Assembly (NCBI GenBank): GCA_963745235.1
Contig: CAVUXE010000035.1
Location: forward strand, 278,752 to 342,751
Length of the DNA stretch: 64,000 bases
Direction: 5' to 3'
From: an uncultured Spirochaetota bacterium
GTDB taxonomy: Bacteria > Spirochaetota > Spirochaetia > SZUA-6 > Fen-1364
The notes under the pieces were generated by a model. It was not told the DNA's origin. It saw only the letters and a list, made by a program, of their open reading frames with translations, and ran no database searches. Of the stretch, positions 8,158 to 59,396 are shown piece after piece. Positions within the stretch are counted from its first letter, which is position 1. Every line of letters begins with the position of its first letter. The position numbers and the translations under genes were made by a program.

Positions 8158-9192
8158 CTAGAATCCGAACGTGTCAACGTTGGCCTTGTTGATCGTGATC
8201 CAGCCCTGTCCCTGGAGTACCGTGGTCGAGCCGGGCTTGAACTTCATGCTCGTCCAGCCCGGAGCCTTCAGGTTGATACCGTTGGCGACCTTCTCTCCCT
8301 TGAGGACGGCGACGGCCATCGCAAGCTGGGCATAGCCGGCGTCCCTGGGGTCCCAGAGGAGGACGCCATCAACGGTTCCGTCCTTGATGAAGGGCGCGCA
8401 CTCGTTGGGCAGTCCGACCGCAGTCACGAAGGCTTTGCCCTGAAGGCCGAGCTCCTCGATGGCACGACCGGTGCCCGGGACGGAGAGCGAGGAGGTTCCG
8501 AAGATGCCCTTGAGATTGGGATACTTCTTGAAGAGCTCCTTGGCCCGCTGGTAGGCGGTGTCGAGGTTGTCCATGATCTCGACGCGCGGCTCGGCGGCGA
8601 GCAGTGTCATGCCGGGGTAATGCGCCTTCTGGTAGGCGACGCCGGCGTCGGCCCACTCGTTATGCGAGGCGTTGGTGACGTTGCCGACCATCGTCGTGTA
8701 GACGCCCTTTTCCCCCATCATCTTGGCCAGCTCCTTCATGATCGTCTGGCCGAGGCCCTCGTTCGAGAAGGCTTCGATGTCGTAGAGGCAGTTCTGCTGG
8801 GAGGCGCCCTCATGGTCGATGACCACGATGCCCTTGGAAAGGGCTTCGCCGAGCACGGGCTCAAGGGCCGAGGGATCGACCGGTACGACGCAGATGGCGT
8901 CGACGCCCTGGGCGATAAGGTCCTCGATGACCTGGGCCTGCATGGCAGCGTCGGTCTTCGGGGGTCCCTTCTGGAAGACGTTGATCCCCGTTGCCTTGGC
9001 GAACTCCTTGACGCCGACCTCCATCCGAACGAACCAGGCGTTCGTGGCGTCCTTGGGGACCAGGGCGATCTTCCATGCCGATTGCGGCTTGGAAGACTTG
9101 AACTTCATGGGATCATAGTTCTGCGCGAAGAGCGGCACCGAGAGCATGAAGACGAGCACGAGCGATACCACGAGAACCAGTGTTCGTTTCAT
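8158..9192 (-). CDS. Periplasmic sugar-binding protein (LsrB/RhaS-like)
   Basis: Signal peptide [23 protein letters not shown]; [32 protein letters not shown]. Confidence 0.9.
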
Positions 9193-51047: not shown

Positions 51048-51121
51048 GGGCGGCTAGCTCAGCTGGTTAGAGCGTCTGGTTTACACCCAGAAGGTCGGGG
51101 GTCCGAATCCCTCGCCGCCCA
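51048..51121 (+). tRNA. tRNA-Val(TAC), CCA not encoded
   Basis: Acceptor GGGCGGC/GCCGCCC+A, D arm GCTC/GAGC, anticodon arm TCTGG-TTTACAC-CCAGA, T arm GGGGG-TCCGAAT-CCCTC. Confidence 0.95.
51080..51121 (+). repeat. attL, 42-bp direct repeat (3' half of tRNA-Val)
   Basis: TTTACACCCAGAAGGTCGGGGGTCCGAATCCCTCGCCGCCCA, identical to 57530-57571. Confidence 0.95.
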
Positions 51122-51213
51122 TTCTTCTATAGCAAAAAGAATTGCTGGCTATTTTTCGACCCGGAAAAGAAACACGTTGACGAAAATCGAAGCTCAATTG
51201 TAAACTGAATTCC

Positions 51214-52395
51214 ATGGGAAGACATGCCGGTGTCTATTCCCTCTTCAAGCGGAGCAAGCGTGACGGCGGCTATTACTACTATCGCCTCCGCGGCGAGGGG
51301 TCCTACAAGAGCACGGGGACTCGTGACTACAACGAAGCCCTGGGCGTCATCGAACAGAAGCTAAAGGCCGTCGAGATCGAGAGAACGGCGCCGGCACGAC
51401 GGTCTCTCAAGGAATACTCGGCGGTTTTTTTTGTCTGGGGCAAGTGCCCGCACTGCCGCAAGCTCATCGAAGAGGGTCGCCAGATCACTAAGCGCCACGC
51501 CTACAATCAGCGCCGCTGGCTGGAGAAGTACATTCTGACCGACGCGATCGCGGACAGGCAGCTCGTGGAGCTCACTCGCGCCGACGTCCTCGATTTCCGC
51601 TCGCGCCTGGCTCGGAAGCTCGGCGCGAAAGTGAACACCGCAAATAAGGTCCTCGCGGTCTTGAAAACGATTCTCAAGGAAGCGCTCTTCCGCGAGGACC
51701 TCGAGCGGGATCCCTCCGCCGGCGTCGGCAACCTGAAAGAGGACCGCAGAGAAGCCGGGATCTTCACGGCGGACGAGCTGCGCGCGCTCTTTCCTTCCGA
51801 GGGCCTCGGGCCGTGGGAGGACCTGCAGGCGAAAACCTGTTTCCTCGTGGCTGCCTCTACGGGGATGCGCCGCGGAGAGATCCTCGCTCTTAGCTGGCAG
51901 CACGTCGACTTTGAGCGCTCGGCTATTCAGATTGCCCAGGCCTGGAAATCTCGGGACGAGCTCGGAGCTCCGAAATGGGGACACACGCGCGTTGTCCCTC
52001 TTCCTTCAGTCGCCGCGGCGGCGCTTATGGAGCTCTGGGACGGGAGGCCTCCGAAGCTCGCAAGCGCCGACTCACTTGTTTTCTGCTACGCGGATATCGA
52101 GCGCGCGTATTGGGGCGAGCGCTTAGGAGAAACCTGGTGGACTAAAAACTTCGCCGCGGCGATGAAGAAGGTGAAGGTCGGGGAGAAGGTCGGCATCGAC
52201 GCGCGAGCTCGGGGGATCAAGCCGCACTCATTCCGACATACCGTGGCCACGCTGCGACGGGATGCCGGCGAGGATCCCGCGAAGATCCGCGCGGCTCTGG
52301 GCTGGACGAACGAGCGCACCCAGGGGAACTACGAGCACTTCGCGCCGGAAATGCTGAAGTCTGAGGCCATAGAAAAGATATGGGGATCCGGATGA
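51214..52395 (+). CDS. int: Tyrosine integrase
   Basis: Arm-binding-like N-terminus (YYYR...STGTRD); catalytic R (TGMRRGE), K (PKW), HSFRH, W (LGW), Y (GNYEH). Confidence 0.95.
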   Translation: MGRHAGVYSLFKRSKRDGGYYYYRLRGEGSYKSTGTRDYNEALGVIEQKLKAVEIERTAPARRSLKEYSAVFFVWGKCPHCRKLIEEGRQITKRHAYNQRRWLEKYILTDAIADRQLVELTRADVLDFRSRLARKLGAKVNTANKVLAVLKTILKEALFREDLERDPSAGVGNLKEDRREAGIFTADELRALFPSEGLGPWEDLQAKTCFLVAASTGMRRGEILALSWQHVDFERSAIQIAQAWKSRDELGAPKWGHTRVVPLPSVAAAALMELWDGRPPKLASADSLVFCYADIERAYWGERLGETWWTKNFAAAMKKVKVGEKVGIDARARGIKPHSFRHTVATLRRDAGEDPAKIRAALGWTNERTQGNYEHFAPEMLKSEAIEKIWGSG

Positions 52396-52486
52396 AATGC
52401 TTGCACGGTCCCCTAAGCTATGATACGTTAGGGATGACACTGTTTGAGACTGTCGGGGGAGATAGTTCCCCTTACTCGCTGATGAG

Positions 52487-52574
52487 GCGGGCTGGCAGCA
52501 ACTCAAAGGGATAGAGATGCGGGGGCATCTGACGCGAGAGCGTTCCCTTTGGTTTGCTGTCGGCCCGTTTTTTT
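52487..52574 (+). ncRNA. Y-shaped structured leader RNA ending in a U tract (attenuator or small RNA)
   Basis: GCGGGCTGGCAGCAA/TTGCTGTCGGCCCGT and CAAAGGGA/TCCCTTTG stems, two apical hairpins, then T7. Confidence 0.6.
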
Positions 52575-52596
52575 GTGCCTCGGGAGGGGGCGATGT

Positions 52597-52818
52597 ATGC
52601 AAGAGCTTCAGAAAAAACTCGACTCGCTTCTCGACTACCGGGGAGCGGCTGAGGTCCTCGCCGTCTCGGTGCCGACTGTGAAGCGGCTCGCTTCCTCGGG
52701 AGAGATCCCCGTCATTCGCGTGGGGCAGCGGGCGACCAGGTTCGAGCCCTCAGCGCTGCGCGAGTTCATCGACAGCCGCCGCGGCGACGCGCAGAAAGCG
52801 CAGCGCACCGGAGCCTGA
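52597..52818 (+). CDS. Excisionase/AlpA-like HTH protein
   Basis: LLDYRGAAEVLAVSVPTVKRLASSGEIPVIRVG..TRF (HTH_17 pattern); SD GGAGG. Confidence 0.85.
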   Translation: MQELQKKLDSLLDYRGAAEVLAVSVPTVKRLASSGEIPVIRVGQRATRFEPSALREFIDSRRGDAQKAQRTGA

Positions 52819-52820
52819 CG

Positions 52821-53510
52821 GTGGAGTACTCCCTTGTGATCGATCAACTCGCTTTGAAGCGCTGGCACGGCAAGATTGACGGGGACGACGCGCTTCTGAT
52901 AGCGTTCATTTCGAAGCTTAACTCCCACAATCCAGAGGTAGCGCGCTACATGGACCGCGACTATTTCCGACTCAACCGCTCCTGGATACTGACAGAGCTT
53001 CCTCTCCTGGGATTCACGGAGTATACGCTCAGTCGCCGCCTGCACCAGCTGCAGAAGCTCGGGATCCTCGACCTCAAGAATCCCCACGGCCAGGGCGGAC
53101 ACCTGCTCTTGCACGGCCGCATGTCAAAGCTCTGGTACCAGGAAGTAGAGAAAGCAAAGAGGGAAGTGGATCTACTTTCCACCGCCACCGAGCAAAAAAG
53201 CCATATGGCGGAAATACCATATGGCGAAACCGCCCATGGGCATCTGGCGCAAATGCCAGTGGCAAAAACGACACATGATCATATTAAGAATGATCATAAA
53301 GAGGAGACCGCAGCCGCCCTCCCTGACGGGGCGGCTTGCGGCCTCCCTGAAGAGAAAGAACCCAGCCTGTTCCCTGAGGATCCCCGCGCCGACGTGCCTA
53401 CCGCAGAGATTCTTGCGGCAGCAGACAGCGAATTTGCGCGGAGCATACTCCGGGAGCGCGCGGAGGAAGAGTCTGATTTCCCTGAGGCGGAAGCGGGGAG
53501 GCCGGCGTGA
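52821..53510 (+). CDS. Putative phage-type replication initiator (N-terminal winged HTH)
   Basis: TLSRRLHQLQKLGIL wHTH; internal DNA repeats plus AT-rich tract; position after xis. Confidence 0.6.
   Translation: MEYSLVIDQLALKRWHGKIDGDDALLIAFISKLNSHNPEVARYMDRDYFRLNRSWILTELPLLGFTEYTLSRRLHQLQKLGILDLKNPHGQGGHLLLHGRMSKLWYQEVEKAKREVDLLSTATEQKSHMAEIPYGETAHGHLAQMPVAKTTHDHIKNDHKEETAAALPDGAACGLPEEKEPSLFPEDPRADVPTAEILAAADSEFARSILRERAEEESDFPEAEAGRPA
53190..53300. repeat. Iteron-like repeats and AT-rich tract (putative origin)
   Basis: TGGCGGAAATACCA, TGGCGAAACCGCCCA, TGGCGCAAATGCCA, TGGCAAAAACGACACA, then ATGATCATATTAAGAATGATCATAAA. Confidence 0.6.
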
Positions 53511-53830
53511 CTCCGACAACTCCTACGCGATGGCAGGCCTTTCTGATTCTGCTACTCAACTCGGTGTTCTGGGGGCTGGGCTGGGCCTACGGGCTGCCGC
53601 GGCGGATCTGCGCCACCGTCGGCTCCTACCTCCCCACTGAGGCCCCCGCGGCGATCCTCTTCTCCAGGGCGCCTGCCGTTGCTGCGGGAAATACGGGAAC
53701 CACGACGCCATGGGCTCCGATTCAGACCACCGTCCGGGCCGATCCGATACTTGCGGCTCAGCTGGGCGCTGCGGGCGTGGCAGTCAACCAGACACCGGCA
53801 GATCTGGGCATTGGGCAGCCGTTAAACTGA
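53507..53830 (+). CDS. Hypothetical protein, one N-terminal TM
   Basis: GTGA overlap with the rep stop; WQAFLILLLNSVFWGLGWAYG. Confidence 0.55.
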   Translation: MTPTTPTRWQAFLILLLNSVFWGLGWAYGLPRRICATVGSYLPTEAPAAILFSRAPAVAAGNTGTTTPWAPIQTTVRADPILAAQLGAAGVAVNQTPADLGIGQPLN

Positions 53831-53868
53831 TGGACCTCAACGATCTGGTATGTAACGGGAGGGGGAGA

Positions 53869-53943
53869 ATGAAAGCACTCGTGATGAAGCTGTGGGCGCG
53901 GCTGTTCGGCAGGCTCGAAGTGGACTTCAAGCAGGCGGCGTAA
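53869..53943 (+). CDS. 24-aa amphipathic peptide
   Basis: Purine-rich SD; MKALVMKLWARLFGRLEVDFKQAA*; abuts the next ATG. Confidence 0.4.
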   Translation: MKALVMKLWARLFGRLEVDFKQAA

Positions 53944-53944
53944 C

Positions 53945-54136
53945 ATGGAGCGCTTTCTGAAACGGAACAGCCGCGGCGTCACGTGCATTTTCTGCAACCG
54001 CCGCGCGGAACGCTTCGAGTTCAAGATCAAGGGCACGCTGCAAGCCTGGGTCTGCGACTCATGCGCCGAGAAGCATGCAGCGCAGTGCGAACGAATCGAA
54101 GAGCCGTCGAACATTGCGGCGGCGAAGGAAGGGTGA
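53945..54136 (+). CDS. ClpX-type C4 zinc-finger miniprotein
   Basis: CIFC-x19-CDSC with IKG and AWVC. Confidence 0.6.
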   Translation: MERFLKRNSRGVTCIFCNRRAERFEFKIKGTLQAWVCDSCAEKHAAQCERIEEPSNIAAAKEG

Positions 54137-54138
54137 AT

Positions 54139-54501
54139 ATGGGCACCATCGTTGCAAGGAACGTGTACCATGGCGACACGGCCGTTGAGGTTCCGATCCC
54201 TGACGGGGATCCCTCGACCTGGCCCGCGCGCTGGTGGGAAGGCCCTGGCCGCTCGACCAGGCAGGACAGCGCTACAGTGAGACTGTCCCTTGTGGGGAAT
54301 GCCGCGGCGGACCAGATCCCCGACCTTTCGCACTTCGACGCGACGGTCGAGTACGACTCCGAGGTGGTTCGCGAGCGGATGATCAAGCGGATGAATGCCG
54401 ACTCGCGCAGCTACCAGGGCACGACCCGGGCGAACGTCAAGGAGACGGCCAAAGAAGGGATCTCCGCGGCTATGGGCTCCGGCTACTACAGGGAGGGCTG
54501 A
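54139..54501 (+). CDS. Hypothetical protein (120 aa), C-terminus GSGYYREG
   Basis: SD-like GGAAGGG; tightly packed in the operon. Confidence 0.7.
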   Translation: MGTIVARNVYHGDTAVEVPIPDGDPSTWPARWWEGPGRSTRQDSATVRLSLVGNAAADQIPDLSHFDATVEYDSEVVRERMIKRMNADSRSYQGTTRANVKETAKEGISAAMGSGYYREG

Positions 54502-54503
54502 GC

Positions 54504-55235
54504 ATGCCGGCGGGACGTTTGATCGACTGGGCCGCCGAACGGCGCGCTGACGAAGCCGATAAGGTATTCGAGCGCATCGAGGCTTTGCAGCGGCTGCGCG
54601 GGACCACGGACCTGTACCCGGGCAATTTTCTCCGGCCCGGCCGCGAGGCCTACGTCGCCATCATCGACGAACAGCACACGTTCGTCAATGACGGCCATCT
54701 CCACGCCAAGCCCTGGCTTGCGACTTGTCCTCGGCGGCCGTTCGACGGGGGCGGCTTTCGGCACATGAAATGCTTCGAGCCCGAGCGCTGCATGCGGCTT
54801 TTCCAGTACGACGAAGAGGCTGGCAAGGTCGGCGCCGAGCTCTTTGCAGGACGGGTGTTCTACAAGAGCATCGGCCCAGGATCACGGGAAATCATCGACG
54901 AAGCGACGGGCGAGGCACACTACGTCCAAAAAGACGCGGGCTTTGAAATGGCGATCTGCGGGTATGAGGTCATCGCCGTCGCCGCGGGAGCGATAAAGCA
55001 GCGCCCAAAGGAACATCCTCAACTGCCGCGCGACCTGGTAGGCGTTGCTCTCTGGCGCACCCTTTTCGCATACATTGATTTCTCGATCACGCCGGACGAT
55101 GAGGCCCAGCGCGAAAGAGACTGCTCCACGAGCGAATGGAGCGCCTACAAGGCGGCGAAGTCCCTGAAGCTGGGCACCGCCACAACCGTGGATCGGAGAG
55201 GAATGGACCCGTTATATCGCACCGGGGGCGCATGA
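54504..55235 (+). CDS. Hypothetical protein (243 aa)
   Basis: SD GGAGG before ATG 54504; 2-nt gap from the previous gene. Confidence 0.75.
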   Translation: MPAGRLIDWAAERRADEADKVFERIEALQRLRGTTDLYPGNFLRPGREAYVAIIDEQHTFVNDGHLHAKPWLATCPRRPFDGGGFRHMKCFEPERCMRLFQYDEEAGKVGAELFAGRVFYKSIGPGSREIIDEATGEAHYVQKDAGFEMAICGYEVIAVAAGAIKQRPKEHPQLPRDLVGVALWRTLFAYIDFSITPDDEAQRERDCSTSEWSAYKAAKSLKLGTATTVDRRGMDPLYRTGGA

Positions 55236-55236
55236 T

Positions 55237-55674
55237 ATGGCTGGAATCGGGCTGCCATTCTTCAGGGGGGCGGACCCTCGCCGGCCCTCGCGTAAAACTG
55301 CCACGGTGGCAAAAATAGCGAGCGCGGAGACAGGGGAATCGCCCGGCAACTCCGACGCGACGGAAGAGGTCCTGCCTGAAGTGGTTTTCGACCCGGAGCC
55401 CGAGGAAGGCGGATCCACCGTACATGCGGGTAAGCAACAGGCCTGGCCGCGGTCACTGTCCCGCAGGGACCGGGGTCTGATCGCACGGGCCGCGGCCGAG
55501 ACGGAGAAGCTCCAGGAGCTCGCGGGGATCCCGCCGGACCTGGCCCAGCTCCAGCGCTCCGATCCGCGGATCGAGCTCGACCAGGACGGCAACATCAAGC
55601 GCCGGCAGCCGAAGCCCGAGAAGTTGAGCGAGGCCGACGCGGCGTTCCTTTTCATGATGAACTACAGGAGGTAG
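55237..55674 (+). CDS. Hypothetical protein (145 aa), acidic/disordered
   Basis: 1-nt gap from the previous stop; genome-like codon use. Confidence 0.65.
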   Translation: MAGIGLPFFRGADPRRPSRKTATVAKIASAETGESPGNSDATEEVLPEVVFDPEPEEGGSTVHAGKQQAWPRSLSRRDRGLIARAAAETEKLQELAGIPPDLAQLQRSDPRIELDQDGNIKRRQPKPEKLSEADAAFLFMMNYRR

Positions 55675-55677
55675 TCA

Positions 55678-55923
55678 ATGGCAGACAAGAATGGCAACTT
55701 CGGTTTTCCCCGAGACGGTGTCAGCGCGGACGGCACGCCGGTGACGCGGCAGATCGTCACGACAGGGGGAGGCGGTGCGCGCGTCGTGGATATCCCGCGC
55801 GTGCAGAGCTCGGGACCTGGAGGCGGACCGTCCGGACTGGGGAGCTCGCACGAGGGCGGCCACCCCGCGGGAGTGAACGGCGAGCAGATCCCCGTGAAGG
55901 GCAGCGGGTACTACCCCGAATGA
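55678..55923 (+). CDS. Gly-rich hypothetical protein (81 aa), C-terminus GSGYYPE
   Basis: SD AGGAGGT. Confidence 0.7.
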   Translation: MADKNGNFGFPRDGVSADGTPVTRQIVTTGGGGARVVDIPRVQSSGPGGGPSGLGSSHEGGHPAGVNGEQIPVKGSGYYPE

Positions 55924-56303
55924 AACCCCTGCTCGCAGAGATCAAGCAGCGGCGCACGGAGCCCCTCGAGCAGAGCGCGACGGGCGGAGCGATCGCACGG
56001 CAGCCAGCGACCATTGCGCCGCGGCAGCCTTCGCCGAGCCTGCCGGCGCGGGGTACTCCTCGAGCTCCGATGCCCAACCCGGCCAGCCTGGCAAGGATCC
56101 CGGCTCGCGCAACCTTCACCAACGTGCCCACTGCCGGCGGCCAAGTCTCCACGGTGACGCCCTCGGTGGAGAACGTCACGACCGGAGCGCCTGGCATGCA
56201 GCGCAAGATCGTGCATGATCCGCACCGCGGCGCGCACGTCGAGCTCGTGCCGAGCTTCAGGGCATCGAAGCCGGGAGCGCAGACGGGCGAGCTCCCGGAA
56301 TAG
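55920..56303 (+). CDS. Pro/Arg-rich hypothetical protein (127 aa)
   Basis: ATGA overlap with the previous gene. Confidence 0.65.
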   Translation: MKPLLAEIKQRRTEPLEQSATGGAIARQPATIAPRQPSPSLPARGTPRAPMPNPASLARIPARATFTNVPTAGGQVSTVTPSVENVTTGAPGMQRKIVHDPHRGAHVELVPSFRASKPGAQTGELPE

Positions 56304-56305
56304 TT

Positions 56306-56683
56306 CGGGGCGGGCGCTGCCGCAAGCGAAGCGCTCACCCCGGGGCAGGGTAGTGATTCCCCTGTCCCCGGCCCTCTGCTGGTCCGGGTTCTTCACGGTC
56401 CCCGGCCGGCGCAACACCCGTGAGGGCGGAAGCCCCGCCGTTGGCGGACAAGCGAAAACCCTCGCGGGTCCTTTTGAAACAGGACCGCTCCTGGCCGTTG
56501 CGACGAGCGGCTTCATGGGGCGGATCTGCAGGGAAGCCGGGCCTGGCGTTGCCAGAGCTCCCGGCTTTCCCGTTAAAACAGGCGCATACCGTGCGCGGGG
56601 CCTGAAGGCGGCCGTTGGCCGTCCGGGCCCCTTTCCTTTGCGCGTGGCGGGGGCAAGGCGCGACTTTCGCGGGGCCTGCCGCA
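56306..56683 (+). ncRNA. Candidate large structured non-coding RNA (~380 nt, ~10 stems)
   Basis: Near-contiguous stems with many G-U pairs in + sense; four CGTTG-capped apices; no credible ORF. Confidence 0.6.
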
Positions 56684-56745
56684 TGATTCTACCAGGCCAA
56701 AAGCGCCCCTTGACAGATTTGCTATGAGTGCTGTACATTCATGGC

Positions 56746-56916
56746 ATGACGCTACAGGTTCGACACGTGCCCGATACGGTGCACAAGGCTTTGAAACGGC
56801 AGGCGCTCGAGAGAGATCTCTCCCTGAACGCTCTGGTACTGCAGATCCTGGGGCTAGCGTCGAAGAAGAAGCGGATCCCCCCAGGGGATCGCGCTGTCGG
56901 CATTTCCACGGATTGA
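56746..56916 (+). CDS. Ribbon-helix-helix (Arc/FitA-like) DNA-binding protein
   Basis: MTLQVRHVPDTVHKALKRQALERDLSLNALVLQIL; TTGACA-18-TACATT ends 6 nt before ATG (leaderless). Confidence 0.8.
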   Translation: MTLQVRHVPDTVHKALKRQALERDLSLNALVLQILGLASKKKRIPPGDRAVGISTD

Positions 56917-57043
56917 AAGGAGGGCAGCGGCAGTCCTATTATGGGGCTGCCGTGGATAGGGTAGCTCCCGACACGCCGGTGTCTCTTGCCCGGCTTCCAC
57001 GGCACTTTCAAAGCAAGAGCGCACTTTCAAGAGGAGTGCACCA

Positions 57044-57340
57044 ATGGTCAACAAGAACATAGACGGCAAGCCCGTCGCTCTTCGCTTGCTTTCGAAGATC
57101 ACTGAGGACACCACCCCAGACGGGGACTCGCGCGCGGCGGAAATCAAGAAGGCGAATGATTCGCTCGGCGAGGCGCTCGCGCTCCAGGAACAGATTCAAA
57201 CGCTCGCGACTTTGGCTGATGGGCGGAGCAAAGACTCGACGCTCTTGTATGTGATCGAGAGGCTTTCGAAGGAGCTGAACCGACACCTCAGCACGATCGA
57301 GCGCGCGTTGATGGATCTGGGCCGCATCGACGGGACCTGA
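57044..57340 (+). CDS. Hypothetical helical protein (98 aa)
   Basis: SD GAGGAG; followed by a terminator. Confidence 0.7.
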   Translation: MVNKNIDGKPVALRLLSKITEDTTPDGDSRAAEIKKANDSLGEALALQEQIQTLATLADGRSKDSTLLYVIERLSKELNRHLSTIERALMDLGRIDGT

Positions 57341-57360
57341 GAGTACCGCCGCGGCGCTTG

Positions 57361-57393
57361 AAGAGGCCCTCGAGAGATCGGGGGCTTTTTTTT
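57361..57393 (+). terminator. Rho-independent terminator
   Basis: AAGAGGCCCTCGA-GAGA-TCGGGGGC followed by T8. Confidence 0.8.
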
Positions 57394-57529
57394 GCCCGGC
57401 TCTTCGAGGCTCAATCGAAGCTGATTCGAAGCCTTATTCGGGAATGTGAGCGCATTGAAAATCGTGCGTAACATTGTAGCGGGAAAGACAGGGAGTGGAA
57501 TGGGAGCGCGCGGGAGAATAGGATTTTGC

Positions 57530-57571
57530 TTTACACCCAGAAGGTCGGGGGTCCGAATCCCTCGCCGCCCA
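57530..57571 (+). repeat. attR, duplicated tRNA-Val 3' half
   Basis: 42/42 identity with 51080-51121. Confidence 0.95.
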
Positions 57572-58820: not shown

Positions 58821-59066
58821 GAGGGCTCCTTTTCAAAAAACTTTTGCCAGAGAGAGTTCCTGTTGCCCAACCATAAGCTGCTAACGGCTGGAGTCGATCG
58901 TTCTTCGGACCAGATAGCTTCGTCTGCTTGCCGGGCGATCAGACCAGGACCTGTGACGGGGGATCAGTTACGTCGAAGAGTTCAACCTTGCATGCACGGC
59001 ATTCAGGACTTCCTCCTTGAAACTTTGGATAAGCAATCCCCTTGAATGCCAGCATGAGTGGAGGCA

Positions 59067-59163
59067 GTTCCCCTTTCCACACTGGGAGGCGACCCAGTTT
59101 CCCGGATCGCCCTGCCGCCTTGAGGTTCGTGGCATTTCGCTTTAGAACGACGAGGTCGGGGAT
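59067..59163 (-). ncRNA. Moco/Tuco (molybdenum/tungsten cofactor) riboswitch motif
   Basis: Minus strand UCCCCGA...CAGGGCGAUCCGG-GAAA-CUGGGUCGCCUCCCAGUGUGGAAAGGGGA matches the P4/P5/P1 pattern; promoter TTGACA-17-TAGCAT at 59199-59171. Confidence 0.75.
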
Positions 59164-59396
59164 CGGCAACATGCTACCTTTGCGATTGTCGCCTGTCAAT
59201 GATTTTTTGGACCTGGAAGGCGATACCAGATGTAAGAGCCGGCTCGGGGAAACGTTGTCGGAAAATCTTGGCTGCGCGGCTCTTCAGCGGCCGAGACGGG
59301 GCGGTTCTGCCGCCCAGTCTCTTTCGCCCTCCGCAACGACCGGCAGCCCGGGAACGATGTCCCACCTCCGAACGCAGCGCGATTAGAGAGGGTTTT

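Follow-up and report, generated by a model that had tools for sequence, protein, structure and literature searches.

The tract at positions 56306-56683 of the window, which is the whole 64,000-nt stretch of DNA that was analysed, is read here as the structured non-coding 3′ end and terminator of the + strand transcript of a phage-related tRNA-Val island, with a probability of roughly 45%. Rightward genes, the lack of an internal promoter-like site, a folding excess on the RNA + strand and a terminator-like end together make a structured 3′ end the simplest reading. The tract is accordingly a candidate for a new structured RNA of a generally familiar type, namely the structures that mobile elements carry in 3′ UTRs or at operon ends. 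The original prediction was of a new large RNA; the + strand RNA structure is upheld by the calculations, but a free-standing molecule of ~380 nt is not, as the structure resides in a core of ~226 nt that is preceded by a weak 5′ third and followed by a last stem that is a separate motif.

The island measures 6.45 kb between two direct repeats, derived from the 3′ part of tRNA-Val, which are identical at 44 of 45 positions in a direct-repeat comparison (51077-51121 versus 57527-57571). All of its genes are on the + strand, and the ORF directly upstream of the tract (55920-56303) ends with a TAG stop at 56301-56303; the non-coding interval extends from 56304 to 56727. As had been described, the tract starts after the stop of the last gene and ends before the promoter of the ribbon-helix-helix gene. 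Across 56300-56600, the GC content at third codon positions is flat in all three frames, where adjacent genes show clear frame signals, indicating that the tract is non-coding; two long overlapping ORFs (275 aa, − strand; 170 aa, + strand) have neither a family match nor a frame signal. Moreover, a promoter scan found no promoter-like sites within the tract, making a 3′ UTR of the upstream operon simpler than a free-standing RNA. Downstream, only 7 nt separate the −10 element from the ATG of the ribbon-helix-helix gene, which is therefore probably leaderless, and an int-alpA RNA motif begins 270 nt beyond the tract. Within this motif, 11 nt are exactly complementary to the 5′ arm of hairpin 56531-56571 (inverted repeat I2).

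Family searches (Pfam, phrog and others) gave no match for the seven small ORFs of the island, and the 229-aa protein has a sole family match, phrog_11527, which is a family of unknown function. Inside the 229-aa gene, two tandem 16-nt repeats (53196-53227) form a better and more conventional origin candidate than the tract. The coordinates of all features are collected in Table 1.

Table 1. Features of the tRNA-Val island and of the structured tract at the right end of its gene row. Positions are those of the window.
Feature	Position	Strand	Basis or description
tRNA-Val(tac) gene	51048-51121		ARAGORN
attL, 3′ part of tRNA-Val	51077-51121	+	left copy of the 45-nt direct repeat bounding the island
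Island gene row	51214-56303	+	Pfam, frame-specific GC3 and phrog matches
Tyrosine integrase	51214-52395	+	Pfam
HTH_17 (AlpA/excisionase-like)	52549-52818	+	Pfam
229-aa winged-helix-like protein	52821-53510	+	N-terminus matches phrog_11527
Seven small ORFs	53507-53830, 53945-54136, 54139-54501, 54504-55235, 55237-55674, 55678-55923, 55920-56303	+	
5′ third of tract	56306-56415	+	three GC-rich hairpins (56306-56342, 56342-56368, 56377-56411) without GTT apex; weak statistics
Module A	56416-56510	+	long hairpin 56416-56469, linker TCCTTTTGAAACAGG 56469-56483, second hairpin 56485-56510 containing GGCCGTTG
Module B	56531-56631	+	long hairpin 56531-56571, linker TCCCGTTAAAACAGG 56568-56582, hairpins 56582-56596 (small) and 56597-56631
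Candidate intrinsic terminator of + strand operon	56597-56642	+	15-bp interrupted GC-rich stem (−28.3 kcal/mol), then TTTCCTTTGCGC
Last stem, ~45-nt conserved sequence motif	56644-56682	+	outside the supported fold
Promoter-like site	56710-56739	+	TTGACA, 18-nt spacer, TACATT; promoter scan
Ribbon-helix-helix gene	ATG 56746 to stop 56916	+	Pfam FitA-like_RHH, 9.8e-07
int-alpA RNA motif (RF02996)	56949-57018	+	39.5 bits versus gathering score 35.8
98-aa ORF	57044-57340	+	3′ of int-alpA motif
attR, right tRNA-Val 3′ repeat	57527-57571	+	island end

Folding calculations show that the + strand of the tract is exceptional as RNA, while its − strand is unremarkable. In particular, the minimum free energy (MFE) of the + strand is −213.4 kcal/mol, compared to −192.8 ± 5.9 kcal/mol for dinucleotide shuffles (z = −3.48), and none of the 100 shuffles was as stable; on the − strand, the z-score is −1.07 and 21 of 100 shuffles were as stable. 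Because shuffles can flatter GC-rich sequence, a comparison with real sequence was added, in which 378-nt windows of the 64-kb sequence were folded on both strands (1010 folds) and their MFEs were regressed on GC. The residual of the + strand tract corresponds to a z of −3.53, with 1 of the 1010 window-strands lower, and the residual of the − strand to a z of −1.22. The GC content of the tract is nonetheless high (71%), which eases hairpin formation and counts against the best explanation.

The folding excess is local to the ~226-nt core at 56416-56641. With 300 shuffles per region, the core has a z of −3.68 on the + strand (0/300 as stable) and −1.35 on the − strand; the 5′ third (56306-56415) has a z of −1.97 on the + strand (11/300 as stable) and −1.60 on the − strand (19/300), and the last-stem region (56642-56690) has a z of −0.8 on both strands. 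The observation of a densely folded tract is confirmed and narrows to the core, as the statistics of the 5′ third are weak and those of the last stem ordinary. All ten of the stems that were listed earlier fold when taken alone; in the whole-tract MFE structure, competing pairing replaces the stems at 56467-56486 and 56485-56510. Further, the bias in G-U pairs does favor a + strand fold, as was proposed from the sequence: they account for 17 of 130 pairs in the + fold and 8 of 117 pairs in the − fold. Of the ten hairpins, 56306-56342 and 56467-56486 have a slight preference for the − sense, and the other eight gain 0.7 to 7 kcal/mol of stability in the + sense.

The same calculations bear on a role at the level of DNA, where the hairpins would form in single strands, as a single-strand or transfer origin or a packaging site, or where the duplex would be an operator or iteron for the ribbon-helix-helix protein, HTH_17 or the 229-aa protein. 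A mobile island must replicate and transfer, and the palindromes are perfect in DNA for 5 bp around each GTT; moreover, the tract adjoins the ribbon-helix-helix gene and its last stem is a sequence motif that is conserved near promoters elsewhere. Folded with DNA parameters, however, the tract is no better than its shuffles (z = −1.63 on the + strand and −1.23 on the − strand), and the excess rests on G-U pairs, whose positions become mismatched in the opposite strand and in duplex DNA. The half-sites vary while the asymmetric GTT centre keeps one orientation, unlike the selection imposed by a dimeric duplex-binder, and the distance of ~850 nt between the tract and attR is too great for recombination arm sites. 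In addition, no island ORF has a family match to Rep/HUH, Zot, relaxase or terminase proteins, no rolling-circle Rep was detected among them, and the tandem repeats within the 229-aa gene are the better origin candidate. A DNA-level element, including the ssDNA structure that was originally offered as the alternative, is therefore quite improbable.

Within the core, the hairpins share a repeated apex. The tract contains four CGTTG sequences (56439, 56496, 56547 and 56613), compared to 0.49 expected from the genome-wide frequency, a density that is not rare alone, as 472 window starts in the genome have at least four CGTTG per 378 nt. The 5.85-Mb genome has 125 GTT triloops on at least 5 perfect pairs; three of these (56440, 56548 and 56614) are found here within 175 nt, and they make up the only cluster in the genome of three GTT-triloop hairpins closed by C-G. 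The repetition of identical apices is far beyond chance. Accordingly, the recurrence of CGTTG at hairpin apices is confirmed for three copies, which are GTT triloops on at least five perfect pairs, but the copy at 56496 is only near an apex. The first long hairpin (56416-56469) consists of 11 basal and 5 apical base pairs separated by an internal loop, with its triloop at 56440-56442; the second (56531-56571) is built in the same way, except that one U bulges from its basal stem, and has its triloop at 56548-56550; and the third (56597-56631), which is the second long hairpin of Module B, contains GGCCGTTG and has its triloop at 56614-56616.

A linker is repeated together with the apex. The sequence TCCNNTTNAAACAGG starts at 56469 and at 56568, each time just 3′ of a GTT-capped long hairpin, and its pattern occurs twice in 5.85 Mb with both strands counted; both occurrences are in the tract, which is far beyond chance. 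Each linker is then followed by a hairpin containing GGCCGTTG (56485-56510 and 56597-56631), so that the core consists of two tandem modules of ~95-100 nt each. Apart from the apex and linker, the two modules are close to background in their sequence identity, and no tandem repeat was found in the tract by TRF. When the hairpins 56416-56469 and 56531-56571 are aligned, 10 of the 16 pair positions carry different bases in both arms and 6 are identical, with pairing kept at all 16; the two-sided changes are moderate support rather than proof, as they are covariation only if the modules are homologous.

The repeated apices would also be consistent with a free-standing or processed RNA that binds protein at several sites, as a sponge, an RNP scaffold or a packaging signal, with each C-GUU-G apex docking one protein of the island or of a helper phage. 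As in loop-motif sponges, three identical apices are carried on stems that differ in sequence and are accompanied by repeated linkers, and the excess in folding is specific to the + strand RNA. The island also encodes small proteins that are possible partners: a 63-aa protein with four cysteines, whose ClpX-type zinc-finger match is below threshold (19.9 bits versus a cut-off of 27), and a 145-aa protein with an Arg-rich N-terminus. Such an RNA is unlikely, however, when the tract holds no promoter-like site, matches no Rfam family and is conserved only within one near-identical lineage, and when a distant relative of the island does not have the motif.

The 3′ end of the core has the form of a candidate intrinsic terminator on the coding strand. 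Hairpin 56597-56631 is followed by the tail UUUCCUUU, in which 6 of 8 nucleotides are U, and the features that are expected of an intrinsic terminator are all found: a GC-rich stem-loop, a run rich in U directly after it, and a gene upstream in the same orientation. The + strand terminator at 56597-56642 is absent from the list of a simple terminator scanner, which expects an uninterrupted stem.

The last stem is located beyond the candidate terminator, and it is the only piece of the tract with copies elsewhere. These copies are 85-90% identical and are found at G000:C30, G013:C10 and G007:C18, which are another contig of the same genome and contigs of two genomes of the genus; each of them precedes small ORFs or promoter-like sequence, apparently within other mobile elements. 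Across three sequences, the consensus fold has 13 pairs, of which one is compensatory, and three pair positions are each broken in one of the three sequences. The last stem has been kept as a sequence and not as a structure, and it is to be split from the structured RNA; it is probably a different motif, either DNA-level or promoter-associated.

Natural variation is available from fragments of the island in soil and sediment metagenome runs from three studies. Four runs were compared with the tract, parts of which have no contig coverage in them and so carry no information. A variant lineage, present in two soil runs of one study, has contigs that cover 56280-56578 with five differences: one inserted A in a loop, and four differences in hairpin 56531-56571. 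The variant hairpin keeps its apex and has a calculated stability of −28.9, compared to −27.9 for the reference; the substitution C56542G and the C inserted after 56559 together add one base pair (−30.8). The retained stability is the sole comparative support for the structure and, coming from one lineage, it is a hint only.

Searches for relatives of the tract gave no Rfam match and no homologue in the collections covered. A known Rfam family had been named as grounds to reject the prediction, and the tract has no Rfam 15 match at or above the gathering score; the only families identified across the window were tRNA, the Moco riboswitch and int-alpA, and none of them lies within the tract. 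At permissive settings, the region 56100-56900 gave four matches of 10-15 bits (E = 3.7-9.7, with gathering scores of 37.8-82), and these weak echoes (E > 3) are of terminator-bearing sRNA models. According to BLAST, the 5.85-Mb assembly contains no second copy of the tract or island besides the self match and a 45-nt match to the last stem, and 60 relatives have no homologue of the tract, only partial matches of 24-46 nt that are chiefly to the last stem; blastn searches of phage and plasmid collections found no homologue. A text search of the literature for the loop motif found no such hairpin motif among the matches listed.

Pattern searches likewise found nothing related. The three-apex pattern occurs at no fewer than 118 loci in metagenome contigs; among the matches listed, none resembles the island by blastn or tblastn, and the few in which all three sites form hairpins are tandem arrays without relation to it. 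The module pattern has no match in viral contigs. Across 401 genomes of the class, the apex-plus-linker pattern has two matches in this genome only and a single match in 6 others; the latter were rejected as relatives, as none is hairpin-like and a reversed control pattern also matched at least 2 genomes.

Relatives of the island were also sought through its proteins. For the 243-aa protein, a word-index search returned only itself, and no relatives were found in viral, genome or metagenome contigs; a full HMMER search found 8 relatives, one of them encoded on a contig of 14 kb. Its AF2 model is beta-rich (pLDDT 68) and has no match in PDB or BFVD at E ≤ 0.001; there was no usable Atlas match, nor any from a PDB sequence search. 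The same protein was considered as an HUH Rep and rejected, as its His-Leu-His is not conserved in its homologues. Profile A3 matched one other genome of 92 in the order (G012) and none of 400 others in a sample of the phylum. Profile A2, built on the 229-aa protein, matched genomes G041 and G029, both on contigs that end within 1.5 kb, as well as one phage contig with which the 229-aa gene is the only one in common. The 145-aa and 98-aa proteins have no match in viral contigs.

The one distant relative of the island whose DNA could be examined is the G012 locus (G012:C226), from the same genus. Its gene order is HTH_17, a replication-initiator O-like gene, homologues of the 243-aa and then the 81-aa protein, a 384-aa baseplate-hub gene (phrog_196, 3.4e-35) and finally non-coding sequence. 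The non-coding end comprises 189 nt of GC-rich sequence, cut by the contig end, with no GTT-capped hairpin and a z of −1.57. This gene content shows that the island's genes derive from phage, but not that the RNA is conserved. Two other connections were considered and rejected: a decayed baseplate-hub gene as the origin of the tract, for which tblastn finds no trace in the tract, and a link of the tract to the int-alpA motif, as no comparable tract precedes that motif at 6 other int-alpA loci of relatives. Overall, among the sequences searched, the tract is an orphan that is present in one assembled genome and in near-identical fragments from a few soil and sediment metagenomes.

Orphan status is one of several observations consistent with a tract that has no function beyond ordinary termination, where a phage module degraded and its end, through duplications or a deletion, was left as GC-rich filler whose hairpins are by-products. 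For example, GAAGCCGGG and GAGCTCCCGG, found at 56267 and 56289 in the 3′ end of the upstream ORF, recur at 56533 and 56555, in hairpin 56531-56571, with a spacing of 266 nt; the G012 locus has a 384-aa baseplate-hub gene where the island has a 127-aa ORF and the tract; the island resembles a cut-down phage module; and neither the 5′ third nor the last stem stands out statistically. In contrast, the core has a z of −3.68 and, after GC correction, a single one of 1010 real windows outranks the tract; the stems have diverged around identical apices and a linker found nowhere else in the genome; the hub gene has no protein-level trace in the tract; and the variant lineage keeps the hairpin's stability. 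Filler is accordingly a doubtful account of the tract.

In the preferred reading, that of a structured 3′ end with a terminator, the tract would be transcribed as the 3′ UTR of the island operon. The core would then fold as two copies of one module, in each of which a C-GUU-G-capped hairpin is joined by the unpaired linker UCCNNUUNAAACAGG to another hairpin with GGCCGUUG, and the last core hairpin and its U-rich tail would act as an intrinsic terminator. The tract may thereby block read-through into the module of the ribbon-helix-helix gene, int-alpA motif and 98-aa ORF, which is probably promoted separately, and this insulation may extend to run-around transcription in the excised circle. Further, the stacked hairpins could shield the 3′ end of the transcript. 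The apices and linkers exceed what termination needs, which suggests recognition by some factor; they could be sites for an RNase, or for an RNA-binding protein of the island, a helper phage or the host.

A more ambitious version, which we regard as rather unlikely, is a new class of modular structured RNA whose C-GUU-G apices and linker are multivalent docking sites for an island or helper-phage protein, so that termination or antitermination, the fate of the transcript, or packaging would be coupled to the helper's state. Should the modules serve for recognition, they would amount to an RNA-level control device in a very small phage-related island, in a setting where the regulation of minimal phage-related elements is poorly understood, and the defined loop and linker motif could be used to fish for a binding partner. 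If they are only an array of terminating or stabilising hairpins, the tract is an ordinary but unusually elaborate operon end. Because the tract is an orphan of one assembled genome and a few metagenome fragments, its importance is limited until relatives are found.

Several known systems offer points of comparison. Two were set aside: a type III antitoxin of the ToxI kind, as TRF found no tandem repeat and the downstream gene encodes a ribbon-helix-helix protein rather than a toxin endoribonuclease, and REP/BIME repeats. The tract does resemble the latter in having GC-rich palindromes clustered after a stop codon, but REPs are dispersed in many copies, and BLAST of the 5.85-Mb assembly found only the tract itself and the 45-nt match to its last stem. 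A k-mer scan found no CRISPR arrays in the 86%-complete assembly, and there is thus no repeat with which the hairpins could be compared as a CRISPR-repeat mimic. The Ff phage intergenic region and plasmid single-strand origins are likewise non-coding, orientation-specific, multi-hairpin tracts in small mobile genomes; unlike them, the island has no detected Rep or morphogenesis genes (no Rep/HUH, Zot or relaxase in its ORFs) and folding with DNA parameters gives unremarkable z-scores (−1.63 and −1.23), and this candidate was rejected.

The island as a whole is like small int-alpA satellites (PICI; PICMI, PMC10803314) in having an integrase and then HTH_17 (AlpA-like) and a minimalist size of ~6 kb. 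Of the characteristics of PICI and PICMI, the integrase and HTH_17 are present within 6.45 kb, and no primase domain was found among the island ORFs. The island also carries a bona fide int-alpA match (RF02996), which the tract itself does not match.

Among RNAs, CsrB/RsmZ sponges similarly display the same short apex motif on several hairpins with differing stems. The tract differs from them in that its apex is GUU closed by C-G and not GGA, in its three or four copies only, in its lack of an Rfam match and in probably not being transcribed independently; as a sponge of this type needs many GGA loop motifs and a CsrA/RsmA partner, the tract was not assigned to it. A further comparison is to intrinsic (Rho-independent) terminators and structured 3′ UTRs, which are found at the operon ends of phages and mobile elements, for example in the sib/tI retroregulation region downstream of lambda int. 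The ~335 nt and roughly nine hairpins of the tract up to the end of its terminator far exceed the needs of termination, and its two tandem modules with an identical apex and linker set it apart from such operon ends. Like them, the tract is downstream of a stop codon on the coding strand, has long GC-rich hairpins of which the last has a U-rich tail, and is positioned at the boundary of two transcription modules in an integrating element.

The tract lies in a 6.45-kb island that is integrated at a tRNA-Val and bounded by a 45-nt direct repeat (see table). Alongside an integrase and an HTH_17 gene, the island holds small genes that are mostly orphans, and the rest of the genome contains no paralogue of it; a molybdenum cofactor riboswitch lies just beyond it. 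A related phage-derived block (L011, contig C226) is present in G012, a genome of the same genus, where an HTH_17 gene is followed by a replication-initiator O-like gene, then by genes for homologues of the 243-aa protein and the 81-aa protein, and lastly by a baseplate-hub gene. By eye, the N-terminal F..G.DPRR...RK.AT of this block's 139-aa protein resembles the N-terminus of the window's 145-aa protein. Within the island, both the 120-aa (54139-54501) and 81-aa (55678-55923) proteins end in GSGYY plus one or two residues.

The last stem of the original prediction coincides with a motif of about 45 nt that is 85-90% conserved in a second contig of the same genome as well as in two congeneric genomes. 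Every copy has a promoter-like sequence or small ORFs downstream, and integrase-like genes adjoin. In the ribbon-helix-helix promoter, downstream of the tract, the distance from the end of the -10 element to the ATG is 7 nt, and the mRNA is therefore probably leaderless.

The 5′ arm of the GTT-capped hairpin at 56531-56571 contains 11 nt that are exactly complementary to a segment of the int-alpA RNA motif, which could reflect either chance or an RNA-RNA contact; a 9-mer from the same arm recurs at position 56267, in the last part of the upstream ORF. Across the whole window, the top fold outlier (GC-corrected z of -3.84) falls within the 229-aa gene, in its 3′ half. A tandem pair of 16-nt repeats there, each containing the palindrome CCATATGG, could constitute an iteron-type origin within this initiator-like gene.

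Coordinates of the island, its neighbours and related loci (window positions unless a locus is named)
Feature	Position	Strand	Score
Island	51048-57571		
Direct repeat, 45 nt	51077-51121 and 57527-57571		
Fold outlier	53047-53424	-	z -3.84
Tandem 16-nt repeats	53196-53227		
Complementary 11-nt segments	56532-56542 and 56988-56998		
Motif of ~45 nt	56644-56682; L002 1501-1545; L003 1501-1540; L004		
Ribbon-helix-helix promoter up to the ATG	56710-56746		
Molybdenum cofactor riboswitch (RF01055)	59054-59173	-	66.8 bits
Related block	L011 2289-6915		
Other GTT-triloop hairpins, own assembly	L007 (G000:C100) 8990-9081		
Other GTT-triloop hairpins, metagenomes	L097, L114, L121/L062		

Other GC-rich hairpins with a C-G-closed GTT triloop, none related in sequence to the tract, are present elsewhere as short units repeated in tandem. 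In the same assembly, two of them follow the stop codon of a gene where a contig ends; metagenome contigs contain arrays of greater length.
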